Shown in pieces: positions 571 to 63,560 of a stretch of DNA of 64,000 nt. A program made the position numbers and the translations under genes. Every line of letters starts with the position of its first letter. Position 1 is the stretch's first letter. Source of the DNA: Raja brachyura (Eukaryota); contig OY740809.1 of the NCBI GenBank assembly GCA_963514005.1, forward strand, positions 18,352,001 through 18,416,000, read 5' to 3'. The notes beneath the pieces are model-generated. The model worked only from the letters and a program-made list of their open reading frames with translations, had not been told where the DNA came from and made no database searches.

Positions 571-785
571 CTGGTCTGAAGAAGGGACACAACTGGAAAT
601 GTTTCCTATCCAGGTTCTCCAGAGATGTGTGTAGAAAGGAACTGCAGATGCTAGTTTATACCGAAGATCGACACAAAGCCCTGGGTTCACTGCATTGTGT
701 CTATCTCCAGAGATGCTGCCTTCCCCGCTGAGTTACTCCAACACTTTTTGTCTCTTTTAGTAAATCAACATCCGCAGTTCGTTGT
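571..785. mobile_element. Nested, degraded Penelope-end (hammerhead) repeats
   Basis: gtctgaagaaggg... plus the agatgctgcc..cccgctgagttactcca tail on +, with a minus-strand tail fragment inside. Confidence 0.7.
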
Positions 786-934
786 ATTTCTATTTGATAT
801 CTCATTTGTACAACATGATTGCTTTTGGCTTCTGTTTTGACAACATGAAGTATAACAATAGAATGGTAACAAGTTCCCACGTTCTTCCGAATCTTTAAAT
901 CCCCACCTAACTAATGGACAATTCAACATAAAAT

Positions 935-1360
935 CAGGAGCAGCCAACTCTCACGCATTGAGCGTGAGAATCACGCATTTCGCCAAATTCTCATGCTCTC
1001 ACGCTGATCACAGAATTTTTCACGGTCTGTCCTGAGAAATTATGTGACCAATGAGAATTTCAAAACTAATATCAACTGCATGGGCCGCGGGTGTTGGGGA
1101 GCCGGGGCGGAGGGAGGGATGGAGTCTCAGTGTAAGAGTCCCGGGGGTTCGTTGGAAGCGTTGTGCCACTGCCGTGAGAGTCTCTGTGCTGACTTCGCCC
1201 TGGTGACCAGCATGGACCAGGCTGCGGCTCGGTGCATCCTGGAGAACAACCAGTGGCTGCTGGAAGTGGGTACCAAGCACTTTGCAGAAGCATTGGAAGA
1301 TAGTGGCCTTCAAATGGGGGTGGTTGGAGAAAGCATCCTCCTTGCCTGCTAGATTTTACC
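935..1360 (+). mobile_element. Putative DNA-transposon (hAT-like) left end carrying a captured gene fragment
   Basis: Starts CAGGAGCAGCCAACT, resembling CAGGG..GCCAAC hAT termini. Followed by clustered TCACGC motifs, including the inverted pair tctcacgc(949-956)/gcgtgaga(962-969). No matching right end seen. Confidence 0.45.
1119..1265 (+). pseudogene. TDP2: Orphan copy of a TDP2-like exon 1 (N-terminal UBA-like domain)
   Basis: MESQCKSPGGSLEALCHCRESLCADFALVTSMDQAAARCILENNQWLLE resembles the TDP2 N-terminus as recalled (RRLLCVEFASVASCDAAVAQCFLAENDWEME). Followed directly by a GT donor (GAA|gtgggt), preceded by GGGGCGGAGGG. No further TDP2-like exon found in the window. Confidence 0.6.
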
Positions 1361-1361
1361 T

Positions 1362-1475
1362 GCAGGACAGGTGACGTTTCAGTCTGAAGAAGGGTCTCGA
1401 CCCGAAACTTCACCCGTTCCTTCTCTCCAGGGATGCTGCCTGTCCCGCTGATTTTCTCCAGCATTTTTGTATCTA
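1362..1475 (+). mobile_element. Penelope-end (hammerhead) repeat with short inverted 5' piece
   Basis: ggtgacgtttc followed by agtctgaagaagggtctcgacccgaaacttcacc...gatgctgcctgtcccgctga. Confidence 0.8.
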
Positions 1476-3766
1476 ATTCTTGCTGATATGCCTTACTGGC
1501 TCATACCGGCTTCCATTTATGTCGATTGTGTTTGGAACTTGGGATCAGAGTTTCTTGACAAAAGATTGGCTATTTGCGACAGAGACAGAAAAAAAGGACA
1601 GTGGTGGCTTTGCACTCAATCACTGAGTATTTGCAATGCAGATGTCAATAAATCTGTAGATATTATGGAATCAAGGTATTCTGGGTTAGTGCCAGGAAGT
1701 GGTGCTGAGGTACTGGTCTTTCATTGTCACGTGCCAACATACAGTGAAATACTTTGTTGAATGTGCTATCCAGTGAAATCATACCATGCATGAGTACAAC
1801 AGGTATGCAAAAAGAGAAAGGTAGAATATGGTGTTACATCTACAGAGAAAGTGCAGCAGAAAGGAGGTAGGTTGGGAGATAGGGAATACATCCTTAATTC
1901 TTGAGAGATCTGTGCAAGAGTCTGATAACAGTGGGAAAGAAACTGTTCTTCAATCTGGTGTATGCTTTGGTATCTTCTTTCAAGCTCTTGTATGTCCTGC
2001 CCAATTGGAGAAGTGAGAAGAGGGTTATGACTGCGATGTGAGTGGTACTTGATTATGGTGACTGCTGTTGGCTGATGTTGTAAAAGACCAGTCACAATTT
2101 CATATGATTTCAAAATAATTCTATGTGTCTTCCTCATGCCAGATTAAATAACGCCTGGCTGTTATTTTAGCAAAATAATGCAACATTCTCTTAACCTTCC
2201 TGATTGCTGATCAGAACTGGTTGGAAGCAAAGTGAACCAGGATTTCTTTACACGTTTGTCTTAATTATTATTTCATAGTGTCCGTGAGCTGCGTATTTTT
2301 TTCTATGTGATATAATTTAAAGCTCATACAACATCTTGTTCTCCATACTATATCTGACCAACAGAAATAAAGTAATGAAACATGCAATTAATATCAGATT
2401 GCGAGAAATCTGCCTGTTTGCAGCATTTGTACTTTAGTTTGCAGATGGCAATTCAGTTAAAACAGATTTATCGTTACATCGGCTGGACAGGCAATTGAAG
2501 CAAATAGCCCTTAACCATTGTTCTGAAGAGCATGATTAATGGGATTCCTACCCTCCAGCAAAGCAATCCTCAAGGAGAGCAATCATTCAGTTATTGATGA
2601 TTGAGAGACAAATGGATCTCTCTTGTGTTATTCAAGCAGCCTCACACTCCGCCAACGCTCTACACCGTTTGCTTCACCTCAGTCACTGCAGATTTGAAAA
2701 TGAAAATCCTGAAGATGCAGGATGATTAGATCAACAGAGCACCACCTTTCTCTCCAGCTGGCCTAACAAGGGTGCGTTTCCAACTGCGAAACTGGCGCCC
2801 TTTGCAATTTCCATCAGCAGTATCATTTATCATCATATACTCTGTCTGACAAACGATATTCAGATTCCTTCAAACGAAACATCCCTTGCTTTACTCCGGT
2901 GACAGAAGCTTATTACTAATGCTTAAATTAAATTACTTTGCTTAATAAAGGAGGTGAGATTGAGAACAGGGTGAGCCTACAATTTAATATCTTCTTAATT
3001 TTGAACTACTATAGAAGTGGCTTCTGAGCATCACCTGAATGCCAAGATTAAATTACATCTTATTATTCACTTTCTATCAGCTGTAATTTTGTATTGTGTG
3101 TACCCAGGTCTTAATAAGCAGGAAATCAAGCTGAACATACACAAAGGTAAAGTGAGTTTGATTGGCGATTGTGAGAGATTAATCCACTATCTGCTGCCAC
3201 CTGACTAACAGGAGGATATATGAAGAAAAATGATTCTTATTTCCTTTAGAGAATTATGATTGTCAGGAAGCCACATAACCACATTTGTTTCATACATGCT
3301 GGGGATGAAGTTAAAATAATGTCCGTGTTTTCCCACTTATTTGGTGTCACGTTCTTGCCAGCACTATTATTTACTGAAAAGTTGTTACTTATAATGGGAA
3401 TAGTCATCAGATTAGACAGAGCTGGGAGAAGAAATACAAGGCCTTCCCTCAAGCACATCAAGCACTTGGTGCACGGATACGACAGGTCTGGAAGGATATG
3501 GGCCAAATGCAGGCAGGTGTAGCTGGGACATGTAGGCAAGTTGGCCGGTGTAGGCAAGTTAGGCCAAAGAGCCTGTTTCCATGCTGTCTCACTCTATGAC
3601 TATGACACCATCCATCAACATTCGCCTTATGCACCAGCAACCACCTCCTATTCACCATGCAGACTCAGATTTGCCAGGAATCATTCTTGCATGCAGCAGT
3701 ACAAGTGTACACTTGTGATTACCAGCTCCTGCTTCCATCACTGCCTCTAGCTACAGGAGTGCACTA

Positions 3767-3855
3767 GGGCCAAGTTATTTAAATAATGTCCTGGAATTAA
3801 AGTGAACTGGGCTAAGTTATTTAAATAATGCCCTGGAATTAACATGATCTGGGCT
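3767..3855. repeat. Tandem duplication, ~41-42 bp unit, two copies
   Basis: gggccaagttatttaaataatgtcctggaattaa and gggctaagttatttaaataatgccctggaattaa. Confidence 0.85.
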
Positions 3856-4861
3856 CACATCGGTGAAGTCGGCACACTGCCAGTCCCCCAATCACCCCCT
3901 CCTTTCACGGTCTCACGAGGCCAGTGGGCAACAAGGATATATATTGCAGCCATATAATATATTTGCATGCTATAAGCATGACTGACTTGGAATGAATGAG
4001 TCTGGAGCAAGATTGCCTTATATAAAGTAATTTCAGATGAAGATTGAACTGCTTTCTGAAGAAATGATTTGTAGTTGGGTCAAGGCTTCCATATATTTGC
4101 AGATAAAACAGGTAATTGGAAAATCTGTGTACCATAGCCCATTCCAATCACACGGTCAGGAGAGAAAATCCAATAGGAACTTAAATTTTCACACTAAATG
4201 ACGTTCAAAACCTTCTAATCGCTCCTGCTGATATTTGTGATTGGGTCTACCCAACATTTAATGCCCAGACTATTAAACGCAGTGTAATGGAGTATTGTTT
4301 GGGCGTGGATCAAAACTGTATTAAAGATTCATACATTGATCATGAATACCAAATAATATGATCTAGCTTGCAGTAATTCTGTACAGTTCACAGCTAAAAT
4401 CACAACTCTGCATGAGCATTTACTTTGTAAATTGCACCCAATTTGCAGATATAAGCAGGAGATGTGCCGCGATAATGCTTACATCTCGCATTCAGGAACG
4501 GAGCCGGCGGGCATTTTGGACTTGAGGATGGTTCTAAATTGTAAGCTATGTGAGAAAAGTTAAGGTGGGACTATAATAGCTCATGTTTATCTGAGGCAGA
4601 AAAAATATTACATTGCTGGTACTTGGCTGAGGTATGGAGATTGGAAGTGGACAGAGATCTAAAGGATGTCCACCGGAAAAAAAGGGCAAATAAAGGGAAA
4701 AACACTGAAAAATCAAGCAGGAAGGGAGCATTTGCGATTGAAGCTAGGATAAACGGAAGAGTTTTTAATAGCTATTTACGTTGTTTTTGGAATTAATTAA
4801 AAATGTGTCTTTCTATTATAATGCAAGCATTTCTTGCTATTCAGTTAACAGTAATCTTGTT

Positions 4862-4988
4862 AAAGAAGGAACTGCAGATGCTGGAAAATCGAGGGTACAC
4901 AAAAGGCTGGAGAAACTCAGCGGGTGCAGCAGCATCTAAGGAGAGAAGGAGATAGGCAACGGTTTGGGCCGAAACCCTTCTTCAGACT
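4862..4988 (-). mobile_element. Penelope-end (hammerhead) repeat
   Basis: Close reverse-complement match to 42986-43082. Confidence 0.85.
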
Positions 4989-5894
4989 TACTGTTAACAA
5001 GAATCAGTGAACCTAAAGAACACTTTGTTTTAATTTTTGGCTTTATGGTGCTCAGTGTAGTGAGGTGCCAGTCTACTTTCACCATCGCACCTGATGTGTA
5101 TGCTGACAGGAGAGGACAGGGTAAACCAGACACCATATCAGTAAAGACATTAACATGTATTTAGCCAATGCCTCGGGGATAGGATGCAATATAGATGGGT
5201 CAAGATGTGAGTCAGACTGTCATGCTGATTTGAAGCCAGCACTGCTCGATCATCACTTAATCTGAACACATGTTTAGCCACAGGAAGGACATGCTGCTGT
5301 ACTATTGCTATTTAAAAGGGTCACCATCTATTTGCAGGTTAGTTACTGACCAATTTGCAATGGTTGTCACTATAGATGAACACAAGTTTGATGGTTTTGG
5401 AGTCCATTAAAGTTGCTGGAGTGAACATGGGATGGTGTGGAAATTCTGATGGTACAAACACGCTAGTCAGGTTCTCCCAGATATTGGAATGTTGGAAGGC
5501 ATAAAGCTTGAGATGCAATATGTTAGGAAGAATGTTTGCAGGATATGCAGAGCTTAGTTGAATGAGCGGGGTGGGGGGAAATTAGAACCTCATGTAGATC
5601 AAAAACAGCCCCTCAGGTCATGATCACCATTAACACTTATCCCATTTTACTATTCGTAACAATTCCCGTCAATTCCCCGCAGGTTCTCCTGCTCACCTAC
5701 TCACTGCAGTTTACCTACTAACATGCCCACTTTTAGGATGTGAAAGGAAATGAGGGCGACAGAGGAAATTGACCCAGACAATGTACAATTTCTACACAAC
5801 ACTTAAGCCAGGATTGAACCAGGTCATTGCAGTTTCCAGGCTGGTTGTGGGGGAGAAATATAGGTGAAGTTTGCGATTGGGACACACACACATG

Positions 5895-6150
5895 CCTGCC
5901 TTCCCCCCTACCCCTTGATTCCGCTAGCCTCAAGAGCTCTATCTAACTCTCTTTTCAATTCATCCAGTGAATTAGCCTCCACTGCCTTCTGTGGCAGAGA
6001 GTTCCACAAATTCACAACTCTCTGGTTAAAGAAGTTTTTTTTAATCTCAGTTTTAAATGGCCCTTTATTCTTAAGACTGTGGCCCCTGGTTCAGGACTCC
6101 CCCAACATTGGGAACATTTTTTCCTGCATCTAGCTTGTCCAGTCCTTTCA
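5895..6150 (-). mobile_element. CR1 LINE 3' fragment
   Basis: Reverse complement of the 23170-23420 type sequence. Confidence 0.85.
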
Positions 6151-8796
6151 TATCAAGTTTTGAATAAGGACAAAGGCAAGGAGAAGCTGGGAAGGAGCAT
6201 GCGAGGTGTGTAGTAGGTTGGAGACCAGAAAGGCTTTACTAACTCTGGGGATCAAAATATTTGTGCAAACAGTATGGCGATGATAGTGGGACAAGCAACT
6301 GCAAACAGTTTAGATGGTGGATCTGGTGCCAGTATCATCCACTTCACCTGCATAAATAAAGTATGACTTTATATTTAATTATCAGCATAAAATGTGATAA
6401 AAGACCAGGACTTCTACATCAATATGGAAGGAATAATCTGCTCAATATCATTTCTCCTTTGGTAATTTTTTTTCCTTCAGTTACATTGACATTGACATCC
6501 CAGGATGTCATATTTTACCTAAGAAAACGTTGATGTTTACATTGTATTTTGCTTTGATTTGTACAAAACATATGTAGTCCACCAGAGTATAATTTCTCGA
6601 TGAATTTTACTCTCAATAATTTTACAATGTAGTGGATAGTATTCCCTGCCCACTCTTTAGGAAGGAAGTACTGCCCTTGAAGGGAATGCACTGGAGATTT
6701 ATCTGAACTACACCTGCACCTGGTTAATTAACAGAGTGGGATCACAAAATCAGGATTATGTCCTCTGGAATTTAGAGTGATTTAATTAAAGTGTTTATGA
6801 AATGTAAAGAAAATAACAAGTTCAGAGTGAGTAACCTTGCTTGCTGGTTGTGGAGTCTCAGTATAAATTCAAGTAAAACTTCTTAGAGGTAAAATGCAGC
6901 ACTATCAGTGCACAAAAGGACTGATAAAGGTTTGAGATGTTCTTCCTTGGAATACATTGACCTTGCATCAATTTTTAATTGCGATCTGAGTATAATAACA
7001 TTTTGTTGAGCAAAGATGGTGAAGGAAATGGAATATAGGTAAATAGTCAGGTCATACATAAGCCATAGTCTCATGGAATAAAACTGGTATGGAGGTCTAG
7101 TCGGTCCACTCCTGTTGGTGAGAGGGGCAAAATGTAAAGGAGATGTGTGGGGCAAGTTTTTTACACCGAGTGTGGTGTGTGACCAGAACATGCTGCCTGG
7201 GGTAGTGTGGGGGAAAACACAATAATGGTGTTTTAGAGGCTTTTGGATAGGCACATGGAAATACAGAAAATTGAGGTATACAGATCAAGTGCAGGCATAG
7301 GAGATTTGTTTAAAAGTGTAGGAAGCTCCTTCTCTCCAGAGATGCTGCCTGACCCACTGAGGTACTCCAGCATTTTGTGCTTATCTTTGAGATTAGATTA
7401 ACTCGGCGTCATGTTCGGCTTGGCCAAAGGCCCTGCTCCCGTGCTGCACCGTTCTATGTTGCTATGTTCTTGAACAGCACCACAAAAACAAATTATCTGG
7501 TTCTGAAGGCATTGACGGCTGTGGAATATTCCTGTGTCCACATTGACCGCAATACTTTCAGTATTACAAAACTAGCTATAGTTCAAAGCGAAAAGATACT
7601 AGTTGCAAAGTGCTTTGGATGTCCTGAGTTCTTGAAAGGTTTGAAATAAATTGATTTATTTTTTCTTTTTATTATTGTGTTTGTGCAGATATAGCGAAAT
7701 TTGACAAGAAAGAAAAATAGTGCACATAACACAGAGAAAGCACAATCTTGCAAACAATGCCAGTGCCTGAAATTAAAATATATATATATATTCTTTTGCT
7801 TCAAAGAAGAGTGGACATGAATCAAAAGATGACTGGGCCAGTTAGTGAATATAATGCTTGAGAGCATTTTGTACTGTTGATGTCAGTGTTCATCGAGAAA
7901 CAGTATAAATTAGAAGACATACTCAGTACAGCCTCACATAAAAATTGATTGTTTGTGAATTTGCAACAAAAAAAAATCATTGAAGCAGTTACTAAATTAG
8001 TTCACAAAGACAATCCAATAGATGGATTTTAGGGTCATAAAGTCATACAGCACAGAAAGATTCCAAAGATATTTAGCAAAGATATAGTTGTGGTCCAAGA
8101 AAATGTACTTAGAATTGCTGATTGAAAATTTGTTCAAGAACTGAAAGGTGATAAATAAGAAAGGCTTTGCAAAGAGCAATGTATGTATAGACATCAGCTC
8201 ATATTAAGCTACAGGGACCTAGCCTGGTGCCACATCAGCCCATGTTTATTAAAAAATAATTGATTCAAAAATTAACGTTACAAAGGTTGTTGCTTCCAGG
8301 AGTGTGGTCAGTTTACATCTACAGGAAAGATGTTTTAAGCACCAAATGCAGATGAAATTATGGAAGGAGCTGAAGATGTAATCTGTAATGGATAATATGA
8401 GGTAATGCATGTCCAATATGGAGAAAATTTCAGCTCAGCCTATTAACAAGCAAATATGAATTTCAAGTGTTGGAAAATATCTCAAAGCTGTTTTGTTATC
8501 ATTTAAAACATATTAAGTATTTATTTCTGCCTGAAATAAGATTCAATTTTTTTTTCCCACTACTCTTTGAGGTAGAAAATAGTACACTCAGAATCGTCAG
8601 TGGAAAAACTTACTTCATCGGTCAAATTGTGACCCATAGTTCTAGAATATTCCACACAAAGCAACTTCCCATCTACGTCCATGCCTCAGGTTTCTTATGC
8701 TTCAGTCAAGTCATCTCTCTTCTAAACTCCTGTAGATATAAGCCTGAGATAGATACTAATTGCTCATCTCAAAGTTGTACCATTTAGCACTATTAT

Positions 8797-9075
8797 TAGT
8801 TTAGTGGAGACAGGCCCTGCGGCCCACCGAGTCCGCGCCAACCAACGATCACCCATATACTAGTTTTATCCTACACACAAGGGACAATTTACAGAAGAGA
8901 ATTAACCTACAAACCTGCACGTCTTTGGAATGTTTTTGAGAAGCACCCGGAGAAAACCTGTGCGGTCACAGGAAGAATGTACAAACTCCACACAGATAAC
9001 TCCCATAGTCAGGATTGAACCCGGGTCTCTGGCGCTGTAAGGCAGCAACTCTACCGCTGCGCCACTGTGCCGCCC
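8797..9075 (-). mobile_element. tRNA-derived SINE (HE1/V-SINE-like)
   Basis: Minus strand has A box (tggcgcagcgg) and B box (ggttcaatcc), the central gtttgtacattct..ggtttt core and a (ctaaa)n tail. Confidence 0.85.
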
Positions 9076-10092: not shown

Positions 10093-10470
10093 TGTATAGG
10101 AAGGAACTGCAGATGCTAGTTTAAACCGAAGATAGGCACAAAATGCTGGAGTAATTCAGCGGGACTGGCAGCATCTCTGGAGAGAAGGAATGGGTGACGT
10201 TTCAGGTCGAAACCCTTCTTCAGACACTCACAGCCTTTGCATTCTACATAATAATTGACTGGGACTCTGGCCCCATTATCATCTCTGTCAACAAGGGAGA
10301 CAGCTTACACCTCGGGAATATCGCCTATCTCCTCCCCTGCCTCAGTCCATCTGCTGCTGAAATTCTCATCCCATTCTCTGAAGAAGGGCCTCGACCCGAA
10401 GCGTCACCTCTTCCTGTTCTCTAGAGATGCTGCCTGACCCACTGTGTTACTCCTGCATTTTGTGTCTATT
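10093..10470. mobile_element. Inverted pair of Penelope-end repeats around a short LINE(L2-like) remnant
   Basis: Minus copy 10093-10225, plus copy ~10377-10470. Confidence 0.8.
10192..10225 (-). ncRNA. Minimal type I hammerhead ribozyme motif (best-preserved copy)
   Basis: Minus strand reads GU-CUGAAGA-A-GGGU(UUCG)ACCU-GAAAC-GUC-ACCC: hammerhead core boxes, tetraloop stem II, palindromic ACGU helix III and a GUC cleavage triplet. Confidence 0.6.
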
Positions 10471-10573
10471 CTCATTGCTTCAAGATTGGATTGTGAGTGA
10501 ATCTTTCACATTGTCCACCCCTCCACTCCCAGCCATGGATCCAATGTAAACCTCACATCTCCACTTCTTTTTA

Positions 10574-11322: not shown

Positions 11323-11608
11323 CATAGAAACAGAGAAAATAGGTGCATGAGTAGGCCCTTTGAGCCAAGACTGCCATTCAATAAGCCCATGGTTGATCAT
11401 CAGTACCCCGTACCAGCTTTTTCCCCATATCCCTTGATTCTGTTAGCCCTAAGAGCTAAATCTAACTCTCTTGAAAAGATCCAATGAATTGGCCTCCACT
11501 GCCTTCAGTGGCAGAGAATTCCACAGATTCACAACTTTCTGGATGAAAAAGCTTTTCCTCATCTCAGTCCCCTTATTCTTAAACTGTGACCCCTGGTTCT
11601 GGACTCCA
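11323..11608 (-). mobile_element. CR1 LINE 3' fragment
   Basis: catagaaa tail complement plus ggcagagaattccacagattcacaac. Confidence 0.85.
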
Positions 11609-12240
11609 ACCAAGGATGCTAAGAGTACTCTAAGATCTCCTTATGTGACTCTGCTTCAGATTTTGTTTACTCCATTGAGTTACTCCAGCACTTTGTGTCT
11701 TTTTTTAAATCAGTGACACATCTGCAGATCCTTGTCATTACCCAATTGGCCTCCATCTTAGTTCTGAAGAAATATATAGGAACACAGTAACTTACTTACT
11801 TTGTTCAGCCTTTTTTGCATTAATTTGTTTAATGAACAGTTGTTGGTAGATTCATTGAGAGAGTAATCACAACTGACATAACATTTAATCATTTATTCAT
11901 GCACTGAGGTGTTGAGCCAAGCTATTTATTCACGTTTACAGTGAAGTTTGACCCTGCAACACATGTTGAACTCACATGTGAACATGCTATCAACTTAGAC
12001 AGATATTAAACGTGTGATCCTCTTCTCGCTTTGTATTATGGATCCTTTTAACTGTATCTCTGCGAGCCAAGTATGTTTAATTGAAGGGCAGTATTAGTAT
12101 TGACCTGGGGAAAACACAAGCGCCTGAAAATTGCAATTACTTTACATGGCTGTGTGCAGTAATTCTGCTTCCAAAGTATCAAGACCATCTGTTTGATTTT
12201 AGACAGAATGGATTGCAGTCGAATATAAGTACATGTACAC

Positions 12241-12660
12241 CTCTGGAGAGAAGGAATGGGTGACGTTTCGGGTTGAGACCCTTCACTAGTCTGATCTAGC
12301 ATGGGGGGACCCCGTGTGAGGGAGGGGAGGGTGGGGGGCATTCTAGTTTTAGAATCCTCTGGCCAGGGGATAGGCCTGCGTTTGTTTGTTTGCTTGCCCG
12401 TTTGGCCCGGTGAAGCCAGACAACAGTCACTTGTCTCTTTCTTTTTGTTTTCACTTTTAATTTCAAGTTTTTGTGTACCTTGCCGTGTCTGACTGTCGGC
12501 AAACCAATTTCCCTCCGGGGATGAATAAAGTTTTATCGTATCGTATTGACCCGAAACGTCATCCATTCCTCTCCAGAGATGCTGCCTGTCCCGCTGAGTT
12601 ACTCCAGATTTTTGTATCTATCTTCGTTTTAAACCAGCATCTGCAGTTCGTTCCTACAAA
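12241..12660. mobile_element. Inverted Penelope-end pair interrupted by a non-LTR 3' fragment (~12287-12547) ending AATAAAGTTTTATCGTATCGTA
   Basis: Minus-strand motif breaks at ~12286 and the plus-strand motif resumes at gacccgaaacgtc (~12548). The insert ends in a polyA signal plus short tandem tail. Confidence 0.7.
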
Positions 12661-13292: not shown

Positions 13293-13612
13293 CTGCACAG
13301 TGCATACTTGGTAGAGTTGCTGCCTCACAGCACCAGAGACCTGGGTGTGATCCTGACCTCGAATGCTGTCTGTGTGGAGTTTGCATGTTCTCCCTGTGAC
13401 TGCGCAGGTTTCCTTCAGGTGGTCCGGTTTCCTCTCACATCCTAAAGTCGTGCAGGTTTCTAGGTTCATGGACTCTGTAAATTGCCCCGAGTGTGTAAGG
13501 GGTAGATGTGGAAGTTGGGTAACAAAGAATCAGTGTGAACGAGTGATCGATAGTCAGCGTGGACTTGGTGGGCTGAAGGGCCTGTTTCCATGCTGCATTT
13601 TTCAATCAATCG
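13293..13612 (+). mobile_element. tRNA-derived SINE (HE1/V-SINE-like)
   Basis: ggtagagttgctgcctcacagcaccagagacc...gggctgaagggcctgtttcc. Confidence 0.85.
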
Positions 13613-13729
13613 AACCTAGACATAGTCCATAAGTCCATTGAAATAGAGAGCACAGCCTAAAGCAATGCATGTTGGTGAGTTCATTTACAACCATCCGGAA
13701 AGATACATCTCAAAATTAATATGTAAACA

Positions 13730-13950
13730 TTGTAGGTGCTAGTTTATACTGAAGATAGATACAAAGTGCTGGAGCAACTCAGCAGGTCTGGAAGCATGAC
13801 TGAAGAAAAGGAACAGGTGATGTTTTGGGTTGGAAAGATCCTTCAGACAAAGGGACCCAACCAGACAGAGTCTGAAGGAGGGTTCCAACCCAATACGTCA
13901 CCTATTCCTTTTCACCAGAGTGAGCCTGGCCAGCCGAGTTGCTCCAACAT
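13730..13950. mobile_element. Inverted Penelope-end pair
   Basis: ...cttcagac-spacer-gtctgaagg... with the family tail on both arms. Confidence 0.7.
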
Positions 13951-14106
13951 GTTATCTCGACCACAAAATCAAGTAGTACTTGTCAAAAAAGTTGAGAGTC
14001 GAACAGGCTGCAATGCTACCTAAGAATTACAGTTTCAGTCGGCAAGGATGATTTGCAACAGTAGATGTAATGCCTTCTTCTCTTCCATTTTATGTTGGCT
14101 GTCCAG

Positions 14107-47300: not shown

Positions 47301-50300
47301 TCTCATTGAAACTCACTGAATAATGAAAGGCATAGATAGAGTGGATGGGGAGAGAATGTTTCCATTAGTGGGAGAGTATAGGACCAGAAGGCACAGCCTC
47401 AAAGTAAAATGATGTACCTTTAAAATGGAAATGAGGAAGAATTTGTGGTGAATTTATGAATTCATGAATTAATTGAATTCAACCTGAATTAATTGTCACA
47501 GGCAGAAATGGAGCCATGTCATTGGGTATTTTTTAAATGCAGATTGATAGGTACTTGATTAGTAAGTTAGGCAGGCAGCATCTCTGGATAAAATGCATAG
47601 TGATGTTTCATATTGGGATCCATCTGTCTGAAGAAGGGTCCTGACCCGAAACATCGCCTATCCATTTTCTCTGGAGATGCTGCCTGACCCGCTGAGTTAC
47701 TCCAGCATTATGTGCCTATCATTTCAACACAGTGTTTTTCTTTGCAATAAAAACTGAATTGTCTTCAGGCATTAATGTTAAAATAAGGATCTTTCTTAGA
47801 TGTCATCTTCTGCCTCTCTTGAGTTTCTCTTTCCTACGCTCTCAATAAAACATCGGTAGGGAAAGTAACTGAGACGCATTTATCGGCCAGCTTGCAAGCT
47901 TTAGATTTTTTCCTGTTGTTGCTTCTTTTGTGTTCCCAGGATCCGAATGCTTTCCCTTTGCCTACCTCCCAGGACTTGGCGGGATTCTGGGATCTCTTGC
48001 AACTGTCTGTTGAGGATGTGACTTTGAAGTTTGATGAGTTGTTACAGATAAAGGCCAATAATTGGAAATTGCTGGAGGCTTCAGATAGAAAGGTAAGACG
48101 TGCATGAACTTGGCATGTACAAATCTGCGCATGCTGATTTAGCTTACTGAGCTAATACCTGAGTATGGTCAAATGTGTCTTGCAGAGGTGTTCTCACCAT
48201 AATAAGAAAATAAAATCCAACATGCACGTACAAACTTCAAGTCATGGTTGCAGGGCTGATTTTGATTAAAGTTTGTATAATTTCTGATCGAGAGACAATG
48301 ATGCAAAGCAACAAAAATAATAAAGAGCATAAATGTTTTTTTGACTATTCCAGACACATAATCCACTACTTAGTCATAACCTTTTACCACATAGGGTAAT
48401 CTCCCCTTGCTAATAATATTACAAATAGAAGAAAAAGTTTCAAAACTTTTTTTTAAGCAGAAGCAGCCACAGATACCAACATTGATAGAAAAATCTGGTA
48501 ATCAGGTGTGACATGAAGATCAATGGCAGTCGTAGTGGCCTTCCATCTACATTCTTGTAGTTAGGGCAATACATCAGGAGGAGAGACAGTGAATGTAGAG
48601 ATGGCCGAATGGGAAATCAAACGCATCCGGGAGCGTGATTTTGTCGAAGGAGTACGTGAACCATTCCGGAAATCTGAATGGGGGGATCTACTGATTAGTG
48701 AGCTCCATTTATTTAATGAAGGCCTACTGATGTTACAGAAAAGAGACAAGAAGCAGCCCAAAGATGGGGGAGTTATGGATGCGTGCAGGTGATAATGTAG
48801 GAACAGATTACTGTGGCAAAGTTATGTGGAGAAATCAAACGGAGGCCTAGTAATTTGGGAGTCAACATTCTTAGCCTGGGTTTAGAGAGGATGGTGATGA
48901 TTGCATTTTGATAATGATATCTCTCAGTGCAGTGATCTAGTTATGTGATGAACTCCTTCTTCATTTTACAAAGTCACCTTTCCCATACTCATCATGCGCC
49001 AACAGGTTATGTGTTCACAAGCACAATGAAATTGGTTTAGCACAGAAGCTGGAGCAATTTAGACAAATGTACAGTATCTACACAAAAGTGAACTCATTTA
49101 TGCTTCTGCTATTGTATTTTCTGCCCCCTGCAGTATCCTGCTCTTCCCAATCCTGCACTTACCCTTGCTGCCATATTTGCTTGCTGATACTTTGACTACA
49201 ACCCCTTTTGCTTCCAAGCCCCCTACTCTTGCTCATGCACCACTCACTCATTCTCCGCACCCTCTGTCAGCTCCCTCAAATCAAACAAGACATATCACTT
49301 TTCTGGAGCCATTTAACTTCTCCTTCAACCCCAGACCATGCCAGCTTCTTACCATCCAATGCTCATTCCCCAAACTCATCAAACTGTCTCTCTCCTCTGG
49401 CACATTTGCTCACTTTTTTCAAACCTATTACCATTAAACTCCTGTGAACTGCTGTAATTATTAACCAAGTGGAGACAAAAAGAGACATAATTTCCATCCC
49501 CTCACTCAAAAATCATCCAACAATATGTAAAAGTGAAATGATTTCATTCATTAGATGATATTAAGGATGTACAGTACATATGTTGCTCTCCATTGCCACC
49601 CTTGCCAATACACAATCACACACATATTTCTGAGCACACTTCTTGTTCTAAGTCTTCCAGCAACTATGCCCTCTAGTGTTGTTGTGTTATTTTGTGGTGT
49701 AACTGCATTTCCCTTGTAGAAACATCAGGTGCATTTTCACATTAACATTGTGTATTATTCTGAATTTGCCTGGTATCTCGGGTGTGAGATGAAAGAAAAC
49801 AGGTGTTCTTTACAAGGTTTCGAGGGTTTTCAAGATCAGTTTATTGTCACGTACAAATTAATGTACAATTAAATTCAGATTGCCACACGGTCATACCAAT
49901 AAAGAGCAACAAGACACCCATGCTCAACATGTGAATCTGTATAGTTAATCGCGAAGATAAACACTAGAATAGTTATGTTTATCCCGTCTGGCTCACAAGA
50001 CCGACACCATATAGTCACAATCTTCAAGGCCATTGTTTTCTCTCCTTATCCTCTGACTTGGCACACACTTTGACATTAACATCTCCATCGTTCTTGAATA
50101 GTTCAACTCCATTTGTGTTTTAATTTTCTTTCATTATTACCTTACCATCATGAGAATGCTTTTTTTATACCCTCTAATCCGGGCAACATCCTGGTGCACC
50201 TCCTCTGCACTCCCTCCAAAACCTCCCCGTTCAGTCCTGTAATGGGGTGAACAAAACCGCACACAATGTTCCCAATGCAGCCGAACCAATGTTTTATAAA

Positions 50301-52700: not shown

Positions 52701-52849
52701 TTTATAAACAGAAGGCACTGGAAATACTCAGTGGGACAAGTAGTACTTGTGGTGAGCGAACCAGAGTTTTTGGGGTAGAAATTTGACCTCTAACGAATGG
52801 ATTAAATGTATGATATATCACATGCACTGTCTCTAAACTTAACTTCCTC

Positions 52850-54947: not shown

Positions 54948-55343
54948 AGGCCACGGTGGCACAGCGGTAGAGTTGCTGCCTTACAGCGAATGCAGCGCCA
55001 GAGACCCGGGTTCGATCCCGACTTTGGGTTCTGTCTGTACGGAGTTTGCGTATTCTCCCCGTGACCTGCGTAGGTTTTCTCCGGGATCTTCAGTTTCCTC
55101 CCACACTCCAAAGACGTACAGGTTTGTAGGTTACACAAAAAGCTGGAGAAACTCAGCGGGTGCAGCAGCATCTAAGGAGTGAAGGAGATAGGCGACGTTT
55201 CGGGTCGAGACCCTTGGCTTGGTAAATGTAATAATTGTCCCTAGTGGGTGTAGGATAGTATTAATGTGCGGGGATCGCTGGTCGGTGTGGACCCGGTGGG
55301 CCGAAGGGTCTGTTTCCACGCTGTATCTCTAAACTAAATTAAA
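54948..55343 (+). mobile_element. Young tRNA-derived SINE with internal minus-strand Penelope-end insert (~55131-55215)
   Basis: CpG-rich, intact B box ggttcgatccc. A 5' fragment of the same variant (cagcgaatgcagcgcc) lies at ~54802-54862. Confidence 0.9.
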
Positions 55344-58300
55344 CACCTCTAGCCAAGTTGTTCCAGCACAGCTACAGTACTGACATCTATCCTACAAAGT
55401 GCCCAAGATGTTCTGTACACAAAAAGCAGGGCAAACTACCCACAATCATCAGCAGATGCAGAGGCCGTGTTATTGATTGTGCTGCCAATGGGTCTTATTA
55501 ACTGATAACCTGCTCACCTTGGGTTCCAAAGTGAAGATACGTGTTGACCACATTCTCCTAGTCTCTCGTCAAAAATTCATAGATAATAGAGCACCCCATG
55601 TTCAAATAAATTCATGGACAGGCTGGAGGTGGCAAATCGAATGCACGACAACCAAGTGGCAGGTGTTGACAATTCACAAGGAGAGTGACTAACAAGCTTG
55701 AAATTCAACAGCCTTACCAGAAATCAAACTGGATCAGATAATATACGTATCTTGGTTGCGAGAACAAAAGAAAAGATGAGTAATCTGCAGTGAGTGACTC
55801 CTGACAATCTAAAATAATTCTCATTTCATCGAGCACATATCAAGAGTTTGATGGAATGCACTCCATTTTGCACAGCTCCAGCAGCCCAAGAAACTCAACA
55901 ATCAAGGACTGCGCAGCCCTCTTGATTGATATCCTGTCCTAACACTACATATTCATTCCTATTGTCACTATGTATCATGCAGACAGAATGGACCACCTAC
56001 AAAATGCCCTGCAATTACTCACCAGGACTTCTTTAACAGCACCACACAAATTTACAAACCTCTACAAACTGGAAGATTCCAGGGCACTATCAAGTTACCC
56101 TCAAAGTCGCAGATCAATGTGACTTTGAAACACATTGCCATTTCTCTATTATTTTTGAGAATAAATTCTAACTGTTGAATAAATTCTCAAACTCACCCTT
56201 AACAGCAATGTAGAAGCACCTTCTCCATAAGGACTTTTGCAATTCAAGGTGATAATGACTTTCTCAAGAGTATTTAGTGAAGGACATTAGATGCTGACTT
56301 TCACAGCGGTTCATAATAATAAGTACTCTAACTGAAAAATGTACAAGGCTATTGGAAAAGAGCAAGAGGAACCAATTTAATATCTCTTTCAAAGAACCAG
56401 TATGAGCATAATGAGCCAAATGATCACCTTTTGTGCAATGCTATTCACTTACTTAGAAGTTGGAATTAGTTTTAATAAGAAATATTTAATTATTTTAATA
56501 ACTTGACATATTATAAACTCATATGAGGTTACATTCATAGCTGAATTTTTAAATTATTTTATACTTTGGATTTGAGCTGTTAATCTACCTATTTAGTTTC
56601 GGACGAATTGTACAGTTGTGTACATTTTCATTGTTACTTTAAGTTTACTCCTTATTTCTCATTCTTTTCAAAGCTAGCAGTTGACTGAGTTTTAACTGTT
56701 GACACTGCATGTAATTTGAGTCGAAAAAATAATTCAATGCCTGCTTCAAGCTAACTTTTGAGTTGCGAGTATATTCTCCACCTAATTGCCAGAGCTATAA
56801 ATTAGTGTTAGGTTCTTAATGGTGGGGGTTTCCACTTAGATTGATTAGGGGTTTCAACCAAGAAAAAAAATACTGCTAACAGAATTATGTTTTGTGTTCA
56901 GGAATTTTACACCATTATTGATTAAAGGATTGGCACATGCAATCTATAAAGGATCTGATTATTTAATGTTTGCAGATACAAATGAGAGGAACATGATTTG
57001 CTCTTGGCTCTAGCTGCAGTGGCTGGAATTCAGTTTTAATCCCATCTGCTGTTTAAAAATGAATGCTGCTAAATAGTGTTTTGCACATTAAATGTTAAAA
57101 TAGGAGCCTTTATTAGTTAGAAGTCTGATGTGTGCATTAAACCCAGATGAACAGGGTTTCGTGTACAGGAAACCAAGTGGAGAAAGGAAGGAGTTTCGAG
57201 TGGAGTAAATAAAAGTAATCTCCTTTCATTGAAAGAAGCAGGACAGATCCATTGATGGAAATAAGCCGACGTGAGCAACAATGGATATTGTAGCATATCT
57301 TCTTGTTGGTGGGTTATCGGGAATTGAACTACTCAATCATTTTCACAGTGGGGGTAAAATAAGTAAAATAATTTTATTGTAAATGAAATGTGATTTCCCC
57401 CTTTTTAAAGTTACTTATTTTAGAATCAAGCTTCAGTCACATACTGTATTATTATATGCATCAAGCTTCCATCACATACTGTAGGATGGGTTAGCAAGAA
57501 ATGAAACAATGTCAGTGCAAAATGATTTGAAATTGACGGTGGGGCTTAAGTGAATGGGATGTAGCAGACTCATTGCATCCAATGAAACATATTTTAACTC
57601 TCCTGTTAAGAAACATATTCCCAAACACTTTAATGGATTTTCTACTTTCTACCTTCTAAAATAGACAAGAGACTATAGGTGCAGGAGTAGGCCATTCGGC
57701 CCTTCGAGTCGGCACCGCAAAATCCAGCTGTAACTATGGTCGATCATCCTATGTAAAGAGCAGGGCTATGTATCAATGTTCAACTGGAGTAATAAAATTA
57801 TGAGTTCTGTGTCACAAAACTAAAAACAAAATTGTAATAAAATGACCAAAGGTGCCAAACGAGAAATCCCATACAGCTTAATCGGGGAGCTAGTTATTAT
57901 TCTGTGAAATGTCATTGTGTCTTAATCACTGAGTTCTTTAGACAAGAACGCAGACTAATTGAAACATTTTTTTTTCCTATTTTTAAGAATGCTCTGACCG
58001 AGAAATTTTTATTTAGTATTGCTGTAAAATGTCTTTCATCTTTTCAAAATTCCATACAAATGTTGTCATTTTATATGCATTCAGTGTTTACAAAAGAAGA
58101 TAAAAATATCACATACATTATTACCATCCATATACAGAATGACTAAGTTTCTGAAGTAATTAACTGTCTGTGAAGTGCATTGGGAATCCCGCAGGCCAAC
58201 AAGACCATACAAATGCAAGCTCTTTCCTTTTCCCTTTCACCACATGAAGCCACTGGGCAACATTGTAGGTTATTGGTTTCAGTGATCCTTATTCATTTTG

Positions 58301-58716: not shown

Positions 58717-59085
58717 TGTGTAGGAAGGAACTGCAGATGGTTTAAACCGAAGATACACACAAAATGCCGGAGTAACTCAGTGGGACAGGCAGCATCACTG
58801 GAGAGAAGGAATGGGTGACGTTTTGTGTCGAGACCCTTCTTCAGACTATCAACAGTGATGCAGAGAGTTATAGAACAAATTAATTAAAGATATTTAGATT
58901 GTTACTTTTTTGCATATCTATCATTCATTTGTTCTATATCTCTCTACATCACTGACTATATATCTCTCGTTTCCCTTTCCCCTGACTTGTCTGAAGAAGG
59001 GTCTCAACCCAAAACATCACCGATTTCTTCTCTAAAGAGATGCTGCCTATCCCGCTGAGTCACTCTGGCATTTTGTGTCCGTCTT
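58717..59085. mobile_element. Long inverted Penelope 3'-end structure with degenerate TSD
   Basis: Minus arm 58717-~58895, plus arm ~58900-59085. Flanked by tagcttcaggtacta (58702-58716) and tagcttcaaatgcta (59086-59100). Confidence 0.8.
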
Positions 59086-59550
59086 TAGCTTCAAATGCTA
59101 GTCATTGTATCAGCTGTGCCTGCCTTTACCCTAGGGCTCAGCCACTGAACCTGCACCAAGATTTGAAAGCTGGGGATATTGTAGGTATAAACCCAGAGAG
59201 ACCATGTCACTGCCCTCTACTTCATTGTCTTTATGTGCAACGGGTGGAGTTTTCCGTGTGGCTCCATGGGTCCTCCAAGGCAACGTTCAAGACCAACATC
59301 TGCAGCTGATGTTCAAATCTTATTTTGTAGTTAATATACTAAATATGGTATAGGTGGCCAAAATGTGCATTTTCTATAATTCAATGCATTTAAACTAACC
59401 AAATTTTCTTGCATCCTGCAAATGTGGAAATAACAGTGGAAGTAACAGCAAATAAATTCAATATCAGTGTAAAGGATGCGGCTACACAGCCCTCAGGGTG
59501 TTCTTTTGATCTTCAATTCCAGACAAAGGTTTGCTGAAACTTTAGTGGTT

Positions 59551-59805
59551 CATAAGTTTATAAGAACAGGCCCATCGAGTCTACTCTGCCATTCAATCAT
59601 GGCTGATCTTTCTTTTCCGCAACCCAATTCTCCTGCCTTCTCCCCATAACCTTTGATGCCCTTACTGATCAAGAACCTGTCAATCTCCGCTTTAAAAATA
59701 CCCAGTGACTTGCCCTCCAGGGCCATCAGTGACAACGAACACCACAGATTCACCACCCTCTGACTAAAGAAATCACTCCTTTCTAAAGTTACGTCCTTTT
59801 ATTCT
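59551..59805 (-). mobile_element. CR1 LINE 3' fragment
   Basis: Minus ORF 59550-59756 reads VNLWCSL...IFKAEIDRFL. Confidence 0.8.
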
Positions 59806-62191: not shown

Positions 62192-62201
62192 ATATATATA
62201 T

Positions 62202-62254
<53 letters not shown>
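62192..62254. repeat. Compound (TA)n(CA)n(TA)n microsatellite
   Basis: Direct reading. Confidence 0.95.
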
Positions 62255-62256
<2 letters not shown>

Positions 62257-63102
62257 TTCATTGATTGTACAAAATGAGACATTGATAAATATCTATCATT
62301 TGTACAATCTATATATATCAATGTATCCTTATGTACAATCAATCAATATATGCCATATTTAAATTGTTTACATAATGAAATGCACAATACCTATAAATCA
62401 ATATAGCTATGTCCTTGCTATTAGGCCTGTACCTGTCTCTATAAATAAATGTAAAGATAGATTTTGCGACATATAGAGTATTTTAGATAAGATTTTTTAT
62501 TGGTAGTCTCAAATCTGGCTGCCTATATTACAATCTGGACAACTGCCCATCTATGTTTAGGTGTCAATCTATCTATCTTTAGAACAAGAGCAACATCTCC
62601 TATTTTTTCACCAGTACACTTGACTGTTCTCCAATTATTTACAGGCTAGAAATGAATTCTGACAAAACATGATTGCAGTGTGGAGACTTTTGTATGCAAA
62701 ATTATAGTTTTAATCTACAGACTGTTTGATGCATATGGAAACAAATACCACAAATAATTCAACCAGAATGTCACTTCGTGTCAGAAATGTAGATTATTAG
62801 TAATATTGAAAAATACAGTTTTGTGTTTATGTTGTTAATTTGATTATCTGCTTTGCTTATTGTGATATTTTTGCAAAAGGCACTGATTTAAAAAAAATCT
62901 CTTCTGGATCTAAATGGATCAGCAATGTACTCAGCACTGTACATTCTACATGACAGTTTCCTATGGTTGACTGAAAGAAAAAAGGCTCATTTTGCCTCAG
63001 TATTAAAATTATTAGATAACACAAATTGTCAAACAAACGTTAACCACACATTTCTAATTATGTTAAACAATAAATGCCCTTGGTCAACCCTGTACATTTC
63101 TA

Positions 63103-63560
63103 GGTGTGGAAATAATGAACTGCAAATGCTGGATTACAAAAATGGACACAAAGTGCTGGAGCAACTCAGCGGGCCAGGCAGCATCTCTGGAGAATATGGA
63201 TAGGTGAATTTCAGATCGGGACCCTTCTTCAGACTGATTGTATGGGGGGCGAATAAACCTGGGCAGAGAGGAGAGGCAGGACCAAAGATCCTATAGCTAT
63301 AGGATCTTTGGGCAGGACAAAGGGTTATAGGTAATAGGTGAACACAGACATTGAGGGTTTTGATAGGCAGATGGCTGGAGCAAAACAGAAGGTGTGAGAC
63401 GCAAGGATCGAAGAGTCGCGAATTGTGACGCCAGAAGAAGGAATATGGGTGGAGGGGGAGGAGGAAGGGAGAAATAAGTGTGAGACCAGATGGGGCACAG
63501 GGAGGTGGTGGTAGAATAAAGAAGGGGTGTGGGGAAGAAGGGGGAGGGGTGGTTTAGAAA
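63103..63560 (-). mobile_element. Penelope-like 3' fragment
   Basis: Terminal repeat (gacccttcttcagac at ~63220) followed by purine-rich UTR complement similar to 22050-22350. Confidence 0.75.
63283..63310. mobile_element. 28-bp perfect palindrome with 8-bp TSD (collapsed TIR-only DNA transposon)
   Basis: CAAAGATCCTATAG|CTATAGGATCTTTG flanked by GGCAGGAC at 63275-63282 and 63311-63318. Confidence 0.75.

Follow-up and report, generated by a model that had tools for sequence, protein, structure and literature searches.

The window analyzed here, a single 64-kb stretch of skate DNA studied from its sequence alone, contains many short repeats that resemble the end of a Penelope-like element (PLE) and carry a hammerhead motif, which raises the question of what these repeats are and how they were inserted. 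The first-pass annotation had described roughly 20 dispersed, retrozyme-like copies mobilized by the Penelope RT/EN. The segments are short and for the most part decayed remains of the end of a Penelope-type element, a kind of repeat that has already been described. The 11-mer CTGAAGAAGGG (up to one mismatch) matched the window 16 times against 1.49 expected, and CCCGAAACGT matched 11 times against 0.85 expected. A search with a profile of 12 copies from the window recovered 37 hits at E ≤ 0.5, of which 35 passed E < 1e-4; the reversed window yielded 0. These 35 family segments (18 on the + strand and 17 on the − strand) covered 3756 bp, or 5.9% of the window. With a covariance model of the hammerhead region, 22 window matches fell below E = 1e-4, 19 of them rows used in training the model; the earlier count therefore fits the hammerhead-bearing copies and understates the family.

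The earlier proposal that the repeat forms the 3′ end of a TSD-bounded PLE was confirmed for the element at 41117–43082 (+), with 12-bp TSDs on both sides (41105–41116 and 43083–43094, both +; the left one reached 15 bp with one mismatch in another comparison). This 5′-truncated, dead copy has a Neptune-type linker (C-x4-C-x2-C), a Pfam RT match (E = 1.3e-4), and 1503 homologues; among the matches listed, many combined RT with PF26215 and some carried GIY-YIG (PF01541). Full-length relatives aligned from their residue ~262. The open frame (41118–42521 (+), 468 aa) covers RT, thumb, linker, and the start of GIY-YIG; it is broken just past the GIY-YIG motif, and the remainder of the endonuclease lies in another frame ending in a stop at 42755–42757. 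A single ORF with RT followed by a C-terminal GIY-YIG is recognizable, though truncated and frame-broken. By linker motif and domain order, the element is classed as EN+ Neptune-type; the CX2-5CxxC linker is common to Neptune and Nematis (PMC8557442). Downstream of the coding region are a pyrimidine-rich type A 3′ UTR (42758–42986 (+)), common to the copies at 32891 (−), 45079 (+), and 58991 (+), a hammerhead motif (42987–43018 (+), C3 at 42989) substituted at core positions 12 and 16.1 (A at G12 and C at U16.1), and a tail (43019–43082 (+)) whose end, at about +92 from C3, belongs to the proximal of two 3′-end classes.

A second 5′-truncated PLE (32793–33347 (−), 10-bp TSD) comprises the endonuclease C-terminus, type A UTR, hammerhead (32862–32893 (−)), and tail. 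Other long copies were observed at 21962–22370 (−; upstream region pyrimidine-rich and of type B, with an approximate 5′ limit), 45015–45174 (+; ~64 nt of type A UTR), 58718–59089 (head-to-head pair with type A UTR sequence in both arms), and 63110–63597 (long type B copy (−) with an inverted tail fragment (+), 11-bp TSD). The derivation of the family from a PLE pLTR/3′ end held, and a close relation to the PLE of this window was limited to 55215 (−) and 4993 (−), which were 95% and 89% identical to it; the other 31 comparable segments were 59–82% identical. On the copy tree, of which 3 of 27 branches were well supported, short copies were intermixed with UTR-bearing copies and formed no clade of their own.

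By its sequence, the motif in the copies is a PLE-type minimal type I hammerhead, putatively self-cleaving. The core (CUGANGA ... GAAA ... UH) was the majority base at all 11 positions of the copy alignment. The strict core test was passed by 2 of 20 copies spanning C3–H17 (C3 at 10223 (−) and 18528 (−)), and the full consensus quoted in the first-pass annotation had 0 exact matches in the window. The extra base between 9 and 10.1 was A in 21 of 24 copies, G10.1–C11.1 was G-C in 12, G-U in 3, and unpaired in 4 of 19 copies, and the palindromic 15.2–16.2 positions read CG in 13 of 27 copies, the rest being mostly CpG decay products. A loop-less A-C-G-U helix III without loop III was the column majority. 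The extra base and helix III had thus been read correctly from the sequence; they are not unusual, as the base inserted after A9 and the palindromic 15.2–16.2 helix are general traits of metazoan PLE minimal hammerheads (PMC4209133). Helix II was 4 bp and helix I, in unspliced sequence, 2 bp.

Two stem II variants, located at 4966–4977 (−) and 10204–10215 (−), had been cited as keeping their pairing. As covariation, this failed: there were 0 two-sided changes in 151 cells (19 copies, whose close common origin weakens the test), the changes retained were all one-sided wobbles (e.g., G-C to G-U), and 500 of 500 shuffles paired at least as well as the real copies. Catalytic G12 decays in the copies as any CpG does; its CpG was intact in 11 of 28 copies, and three other CpGs were intact in 14 of 27, 13 of 27, and 15 of 30. 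Identity to the consensus was 236/249 in non-CpG core columns against 1568/1851 in the tail, and this excess core conservation is only suggestive without edge-biased columns (4 internal core columns, p = 0.096; subfamily comparison, 1/11 vs. 20/64, p = 0.12).

The copies are not simply dispersed, as had been assumed. Among neighbor pairs at most 320 bp apart, 11 of 14 were head-to-head, which 0 of 100,000 strand permutations reached. Such pairs were identified at 12238–12659 (12-bp TSD with one mismatch; ~245 nt of other sequence within the right arm), 13731–13955 (15-nt spacer; arms sisters on the tree with weak support), 35917–36082 (right arm with an N7=U core box and the cleavage triplet deleted), 38680–38902 (perfect 15-bp TSD; arms mutually nearest relatives), 43117–43316 (old, directly downstream of the PLE, 8-bp candidate TSD), 44261–44463 (old), and 47570–47728 (overlapping junction). 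The short copies at 10094–10225 (−; long tail, core intact) and 10377–10474 (+) are head-to-head across 149 nt and may be independent; a TSD shared by the two was sought and not found. The single head-to-tail neighbor, the copy at 44480–44600 (+), starts inside stem II, lacks core box 1, and has a long tail.

Single short copies were found at 4859–4988 (−; long tail, 89% identical to the PLE and of its subfamily, core box 2 mutated), 18433–18528 (−; core intact, inside another repeat, abutting 8-bp duplication), and 26197–26294 (−; abutting 7-bp duplication). Another (1364–1478 (+)) starts at C3−5 with a small inverted piece directly upstream, and a young copy with 95% identity to the PLE tail (55130–55215 (−)) starts at C3+6 within another repeat, without a TSD. 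The segments at 7327–7390 (+) and 11667–11734 (+) are tail-only fragments. Position 571, formerly taken as a separate first copy, belongs to one half of an old copy (563–627 and 704–783 (+)) split by a nested, TSD-bounded mini head-to-head unit of tail fragments only (628–703 (−); 12-bp duplication 616–627/704–715).

TSDs scoring at least 10 enclosed 6 of 28 tested intervals (the whole units at 628, 12238, 32793, 38680, 41117, and 63110), whereas 1 of 60 random intervals scored 10 and none scored higher. Many units had no TSD, and TSDs of 7–8 bp are not significant alone (10 of 60 random intervals scored at least 8). The 3′ ends fell mainly into two classes relative to C3, +84 to +103 (17 of 34) and +115 to +130 (14 of 34), and in 9 of 10 pairs one arm, and only one, carried the optional tail of ~35 nt (p = 0.008). 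With their TSDs, head-to-head pairs, and tails, the copies bear the integration marks of a PLE RT/EN, in agreement with the mobilization originally proposed.

The 5′ ends were sharply clustered, with 15 of 34 (hand-called) within 8 nt (−5 to +2 relative to C3) against 0.7 expected. Because the boundaries were called by hand with the alignments already seen, the peak window is post hoc, and a ×25 correction was applied to it. The stretch from −6 to −49 contained no boundary; per nt, the stop rate was 0.11 in the peak and 0.002 upstream of it. Of the peak ends, 12 of 15 had a duplication or partner arm within 45 nt, and 10 of 15 lay next to an inverted arm, so that their position might be due to the palindrome alone. 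The peak site is palindromic (TCAG-N-CTGA) and initiator-like; the initiator YYANWYY occurred in 4 of 6 UTR-bearing copies (background 1.2% per position), which is weak evidence, and a DPE at +28 to +32 was not consistent. At the cleavage site, there were 0 of 34 starts within +23 to +33 (within 5 nt of C3+28).

We consider it probable that the repeats are pLTR/3′-end units of Neptune-type PLEs, of at least three subfamilies, inserted by the PLE RT-endonuclease from uncut RNA. Judging from published work on PAc, the PLE protein would bind the RNA downstream of the hammerhead. It would make cuts staggered by 7–15 bp, the spacing seen in the TSDs. The cDNA would have two alternative internal start sites, lying at about +95 and at +125 to +130 from C3 and corresponding to the two observed 3′-end classes, and would be copied back through the uncut hammerhead, no copy beginning at the cleavage site, usually to stop 0–5 nt upstream of C3, where the ends are observed. 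One primed strand would give a single copy, and priming of both target strands, one per start site, would give a head-to-head pair whose cDNAs may be joined at the TCAG-N-CTGA palindrome or by microhomology. The hammerhead would be inherited cargo, maintained in masters and decaying neutrally in copies, with insertion independent of it.

Two readings of the fixed 5′ end suggest themselves: a short transcript of the pLTR may serve as template in the manner of a SINE, or the palindrome may guide the stop. We lean slightly toward the former, in which the boundary would mark where a short RNA transcribed from the pLTR itself begins; the unit would therefore be non-autonomous and SINE-like. Among the short copies, the 5′ end is fixed independently of the autonomous element, and this sharply shared start hints at propagation of the short unit through a transcript of its own. 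A distinct non-autonomous master would be favored by the sharp boundary and is not shown by the tree. The fuller proposal of a skate 95–135-nt "pLTR SINE", with a start at an initiator immediately upstream of the hammerhead core and with both RT start sites, copied in trans by the Neptune RT/EN, is tentative and, in our judgment, rather doubtful. If it applied, the head-to-head pairs would record two-strand priming of one cut, one strand per start site, possibly on two RNAs held via the palindromic hammerhead helix.

The strongest competitor, to which we give a substantial chance somewhat short of even, is that all copies came from full-length PLE RNA by truncation, with the TCAG-N-CTGA cDNA folding back or annealing to a partner cDNA; it departs from the preferred explanation in the 5′-peak step alone. 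The palindrome is present at pair junctions (38790–38800, 47620–47628, 13846–13872, and 12286–12298), palindromic inverted junctions in rotifer PLEs were read as self-priming (PMC3846280), dispersed minimal hammerheads were earlier ascribed to truncated PLEs (PMC4209133), and the intermingling of short and long copies on the tree also fits. However, the single copies at 18433–18528 and 26197–26294 have no inverted arm and yet share the identical start point, and the gap from −6 to −49 and the contrast in stop rates also count against this reading.

An unlikely alternative is that the motif is no working ribozyme even in masters and is kept as a protein-binding or promoter signal. Helix I, with only 2 bp, had a pairing probability of at most 0.02 in 8 of 8 folded copies, competing pairings hid core box 1, and the nearest-neighbor energy of the hammerhead dimer was −0.5 kcal/mol vs. 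−19.2 kcal/mol for the free cofold. The first-pass annotation had proposed an Rfam scan, whose 10 matches at E ≤ 5 included no hammerhead, and covariation was likewise lacking in stem II. Against this, all 11 core positions are column majorities in hammerhead order and spacing at the known pLTR position of PLEs, and the energy models leave out the tertiary contacts of the core. The poor folding energy is also expected because comparable PLE motifs are weak in vitro or dependent on the PLE protein (PMC4209133, PMC11167929).

We think it improbable that a 3′ splice site sets the 5′ boundary; in this reading, the pyrimidine tract and CAG before helix I would serve as acceptor and splicing might lengthen helix I. 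The 40 nt upstream were 68–80% pyrimidine in six contiguous UTR-bearing copies, the intron of Drosophila virilis Penelope stops where helix I begins (PMC4209133), and unspliced helix I is short. However, a shared upstream exon would be expected, whereas the sequence upstream of the short copies had background similarity to the UTR references and was unrelated by eye; the sole internal UTR deletion (58844 (−)) lacked clean splice ends, and the PLE 3′ UTRs in the window are pyrimidine-rich throughout.

We regard a retrozyme-like route, in which dimers self-cleave, circularize, and are reverse transcribed by the PLE, as very improbable. The consensus has a complete core and a 4-nt palindromic helix III, and vertebrate retrozymes are reported to arise from pLTRs and leave monomers, with one chondrichthyan genome positive (10.64898/2026.07.22.740005). 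However, the unit was absent from all 8 tandem arrays of the window, 1 of 14 close pairs was head-to-tail (its second copy being the one without core box 1), the 3′ ends are not cleavage-defined, and the units measure 95–135 nt against monomers of 150–450 bp with canonical cores (PMC7229834). The retrozyme label given earlier is thus unsupported because the tandem, canonical-core, and cleavage-site-boundary (0 of 34) tests failed. Reading the inverted pairs as MITE-like DNA transposons with terminal inverted repeats, the least probable option, accounts for duplications flanking inverted arms and is refuted by the variable ends, as the two arms differ in length in a fixed manner, the spacers are unrelated, duplications vary from 7 to 15 bp, and the arm sequence is the terminus of an RT-encoding element.

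The preferred explanation, insertion by the PLE RT-endonuclease, can be set beside known systems. As in PLE minimal hammerheads (PMC4209133), the copies have the core boxes, the insert between 9 and 10.1, G10.1–C11.1, palindromic 15.2–16.2, no loop III, a pLTR location, mostly dispersed singles, and nearby opposite-strand pairs; opposite-strand pairs 100–700 bp apart and genome-wide single copies were reported there. In contrast, helix II has 4 bp here against 7–8 bp in Schistosoma; helix I, with 2 bp, matches D. virilis and is shorter than the typical 4–5 bp (PMC4209133). The density of ~340 hammerhead regions per Mb in the window is not a like-for-like counterpart of the 4,000–9,000 descriptor hits counted in a coelacanth or Xenopus genome (PMC4209133). 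Two supplementary files of PMC4209133 contained no shark or skate terms.

EN+ PLE insertions (PMC8557442, PMC3846280) share with the window 5′ truncation, an inverted 5′-truncated copy, the junction palindrome, a tail of 30–40 bp at one end, TSDs of 8–10 bp around the unit, and trans-mobilization through pLTR sequence alone; unlike them, most units here are the terminal 95–135 nt only with a sharp common 5′ end, and the partial tandems giving direct pLTRs were absent from the window. In vitro, PAc, an Anolis Poseidon PLE, uses two RT start sites, both-strand extension, and uncleaved RNA (PMC11167929), which parallels the two 3′-end classes seen here and the both-strand extension and uncleaved template proposed here, as does the hammerhead just upstream of the start sites. 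PAc belongs to another clade and its ORF begins at stem II (PMC11167929), whereas the tail here, considered as an ORF start, had no codon periodicity by eye and no match to the N-termini of full-length homologues.

Non-LTR retrozymes (PMC7229834, 10.64898/2026.07.22.740005) are likewise non-coding, hammerhead-bearing, pLTR-related, and possibly dispersed as monomers, but they are defined by head-to-tail tandems, circular RNAs, and originally canonical hammerheads, and neither of the traits testable in the window (tandem units and cleavage-site ends) was found. The units are short like the non-autonomous Chlamys PLE derivatives such as MRC1 (PMC8557442) and the hammerhead SINE-like repeats of Schistosoma (PMC6765202), which have their 3′ end in common with an autonomous PLE or bear a promoter and a hammerhead; MRC1-type elements form pLTRs, often in head-to-tail arrays, and the Chlamys elements are mostly without hammerheads (PMC8557442). 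Unlike a classical SINE, the units had no tRNA-like head: a tRNA search of the window found none, and Rfam gave no tRNA-, 5S-, or 7SL-derived Pol III head.

If the window is typical (22 regions per 64 kb, scaled to a 2.13-Gb estimate for the little skate genome, PMC10115646), there would be about 7 × 10^5 hammerhead-derived loci genome-wide, some tens of thousands of them with intact cores. Should the pLTR SINE proposal be true, the repeats would be among the largest vertebrate hammerhead families and would preserve an extensive natural record of PLE insertions.

The window also contains a DLGAP/GKAP-family host gene, with a detected exon span of 14188–50630 (+) and a Pfam GKAP match (E = 1e-38) at 43520–43903. 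Further exons in this span, assigned by short motifs, presumably belong to the same gene. The repeat copies within 14188–50630 are intronic in it.

The repeat family proposed in the first-pass annotation was confirmed, with two short motifs occurring approximately 11 and 13 times more often than expected from shuffling of the window (16 matches against 1.49 expected and 11 against 0.85, respectively). A profile built on 12 window copies retrieved 35 segments at E < 1e-4, which corresponded to 3756 bp or 5.9% of the window, and none in the reversed window; the weak profile matches at 52712 (E 0.14) and 53242 (E 0.041) were excluded before all counts. A covariance model built for the hammerhead region gave 22 sites at E < 1e-4, of which 19 were its own training rows. 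The tree was built from the 30 of 35 segments with at least 60 nt. When the 1377 copy was translated in its antisense frame and used in a protein search for the repeat in the gene models of other species, none of the eight candidates reached E ≤ 10, which is weak evidence.

The repeat forms the 3' end of a 5'-truncated, probably Neptune-type Penelope-like element (PLE) at 41117–43082 on the + strand, which is bounded by a 12-bp target site duplication (TSD) and to which most copies are 59–82% identical. The PLE contains a 468-aa open RT frame (Pfam RVT_1 match at E 1.3e-4, under the curated cut-off), a C-x4-C-x2-C linker, and a frameshift-broken GIY-YIG domain, and it is devoid of approximately 260 N-terminal residues. 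Such a linker motif is characteristic of the Neptune and Nematis clades (PMC8557442), of which Neptune is the one reported in vertebrates (preprint 10.64898/2026.07.22.740005). By identity, the closest relatives among the matches listed were from Amblyraja (78%), Mobula (74%), and Chiloscyllium and Hypanus (both 70%), which points to an elasmobranch host, probably a skate. The young PLE is intronic and in sense orientation in a postsynaptic scaffold gene of the DLGAP/GKAP family, the exons of which were found on the + strand from at least 14188 to approximately 50630, with the stop near 50630; the gene is presumably most like DLGAP3.

Fourteen neighbor pairs of the repeat were located within 320 bp of each other, while random placement gave a mean of 5.8 and a maximum of 13 in 5000 trials. 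Eleven pairs were head-to-head, two tail-to-tail, and one head-to-tail, a composition reached in none of 100000 permutations; this head-to-head pairing had been overlooked in the first-pass annotation. One of the 11 (629/704) is a nested insertion, in which a very small inverted unit, flanked by a 12-bp TSD, splits the copy at 563–783, and it was excluded from the analysis of the remaining ten. Of the 28 intervals tested, six had strong duplications around whole units, among them three pairs and the nested unit, compared with one of 60 null intervals at score 10 and none higher; no 7–8-bp candidate duplication was individually significant. The 3' ends fell mainly into two classes approximately 35 nt apart, and the long 3' end was present on exactly one arm in nine of the ten pairs (p = 0.008). 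In the tree, the two arms were sisters in three pairs, with strong support in one, and firm resolution was obtained only for a PLE-like group of five copies. Inverted pairs, an optional tail, and TSDs around units are published marks of PLE insertion (PMC8557442, PMC3846280), and the unit arrangement and two 3' classes match the biochemistry of PAc (PMC11167929). Within the right arm of one TSD-bounded pair, approximately 245 nt of unrelated sequence (12299–12545) terminates with a short ATCGT repeat, reminiscent of the 3' end of a non-LTR retroelement. The flanks of the 4859 copy (4840–4858 and 4989–5010) contain inverted copies of each other in place of a clean TSD, a sequence pattern that suggests template jumping to the target DNA as the copy inserted.

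The 5' ends were called by hand on 34 arms, for which the segments at 563 and 704 were merged and the nested unit's 14-nt right arm was omitted. With positions counted from C3 of the hammerhead core, 15 starts were at −5 to +2, against 0.7 expected; seven of the others were inside the hammerhead, five in the tail, and seven at −50 or further upstream. No start among the 34 arms was observed at −49 to −6 or within 5 nt of +28, the start of the cleavage product. As 12 of the 15 peak starts are delimited within 45 nt by a duplication or partner arm, the peak does not merely reflect unrecognized UTR, of which at least two types were found upstream of the repeat. At 63294–63318, within its type B upstream region, the 63110 unit has a perfect 25-nt inverted repeat. 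A pyrimidine tract with CAG ends at the peak site. By the initiator and DPE consensus, four of the six UTR-bearing copies have an initiator-like match there, and a DPE at +28 to +32 was inconsistent among the six.

We consider it likely that these units are terminal repeat (pLTR)/3'-end units inserted by the PLE RT/EN from uncut RNA. Published PLE work has described internal priming by the RT/EN with uncut RNA as the template (PMC11167929); priming of both target strands would produce the head-to-head pairs, and a short RNA may be the template. Because the pLTR of Drosophila virilis Penelope contains an internal promoter (PMC2377424) and the pLTR sequence alone is mobile in trans (PMC3846280), a short pLTR transcript is a plausible insertion template. 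The peak site is also a near-palindrome (TCAG-N-CTGA), and truncation guided by the palindrome could take the place of the short template; we would give the short template a little better than an even chance and the truncation a little less than one. The retrozyme-like reading of the first-pass annotation did not hold in the tests of tandem arrangement and unit boundaries, by which the repeat differs from retrozymes as defined in PMC7229834 and the preprint 10.64898/2026.07.22.740005; no tandem array in the window contained the repeat unit. Neither a tRNA search nor an Rfam scan of the window revealed a Pol III SINE head. A reading of the inverted pairs as MITEs was rejected.

In the hammerhead region, column majorities gave a complete core in which an additional A follows A9; helix I has 2 bp, stem II has 4 bp and is capped by a tetraloop, and the ACGU palindrome is without a loop. 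The stem II variants quoted in the first-pass annotation were present at the positions given there, but its full consensus occurred in no copy. The extra base and palindromic helix III were also present but are not new, as an inserted base, a G10.1–C11.1 pair, and a 15.2–16.2 palindrome are already listed for minimal hammerheads of metazoan PLEs (PMC4209133). The core was intact in two of the 20 copies spanning C3–H17, and an independent descriptor, which gave one match in three of 100 shuffles, recovered the same two. Both are antisense to the host gene (0/9 on the + and 2/11 on the − strand, too few copies for a test), and the motif of the PLE has two core changes. The proposed pairing of stem II variants was not supported by covariation, with no two-sided change in 151 cells from 19 copies selected for a recognizable hammerhead region and equally good pairing in 500 of 500 shuffles; the Rfam hammerhead scan of the window returned no hammerhead match. 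In two independent units (1364–1386 and 38771–38796), stem II was removed by the same kind of internal deletion between GAA/TTC microhomologies.

The CpG with G12, the catalytic residue in hammerhead numbering, was intact in 11 of 28 copies, similar to other CpGs, and thus the copies decay neutrally. The expected excess conservation of the core was observed in the raw counts, where non-CpG core columns exceeded the tail (236/249 vs. 1568/1851; column test p = 0.002), but six of the ten core columns are at the alignment edge and the four internal ones gave p = 0.096, and differences between subfamily majorities gave p = 0.12; selection on the hammerhead in master elements is therefore only suggested. 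The predicted pairing probability of helix I was ≤0.02 in eight copies, and predicted energies were −0.5 kcal/mol for the hammerhead dimer vs. −19.2 kcal/mol for the free cofold, so that predicted folding disfavors the active form. As published PLE hammerheads are likewise weak or protein-assisted (PMC4209133, PMC11167929), the motif may be active all the same. RNAalifold on 20 copies gave a near-absent consensus structure (three pairs, −0.55 kcal/mol), and a conserved tail hairpin is thus unsupported, although individual copies do fold one. The repeat consensus has six short self-complementary segments over 130 nt (at C3−1, +13, +44, +70, +101, and +114), which are possible dimer contacts. 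Lunse et al. (RNA Biol) reportedly dealt with PLE hammerhead dimers.

The repeat is a member of the PLE minimal hammerhead kind, with a short helix I, and a normal EN+ PLE insertion family. Minimal hammerheads as dispersed single copies, and as pairs on opposite strands, have been on record since 2014 (PMC4209133), chondrichthyan families in the supplements of the retrozyme preprint (10.64898/2026.07.22.740005) may bear on novelty, and the family may already be catalogued, e.g., in Repbase or Dfam. Literature searches of open-access papers, one of which covered the best 25 of 3,139 matches, listed no shark or ray account of it. The known association of PLE pLTRs with minimal hammerheads is extended here to an elasmobranch, at high density, and two in vitro points from one lizard element (uncut RNA template and two RT start sites) gain genomic support. 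The main interest lies in the fixed 5' end and asymmetric pairs rather than the ribozyme core. Should the short unit produce a transcript of its own, it would be a non-autonomous partner of Neptune elements that carries a Pol II promoter. Whether PLE hammerheads are parasites of PLEs has been raised as a question (PMC8557442), and the abundance and sharp ends of the repeat make the role of these hammerheads testable by genome-wide end counts.

The window also contains 250–350-bp repeats with up to approximately 10 overlapping self-matches each (8796–9075, 11323–11607, 13295–13610, 18179–18430, 23176–23529, 26421–26721, 29511–29760, 30424–30732, 45607–45921, 54949–55344, and others). The copy at 54949–55344, which we take to resemble an elasmobranch HE1-type SINE, hosts the 55130 hammerhead copy, and the 18433 copy is likewise inside such a repeat. 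Further multi-copy repeats with several self-matches (5895–6141, 38937–39325, 40420–40599, and 47250–47566) are probably LINE 3' fragments, one of which interrupts or adjoins the 47570 pair.
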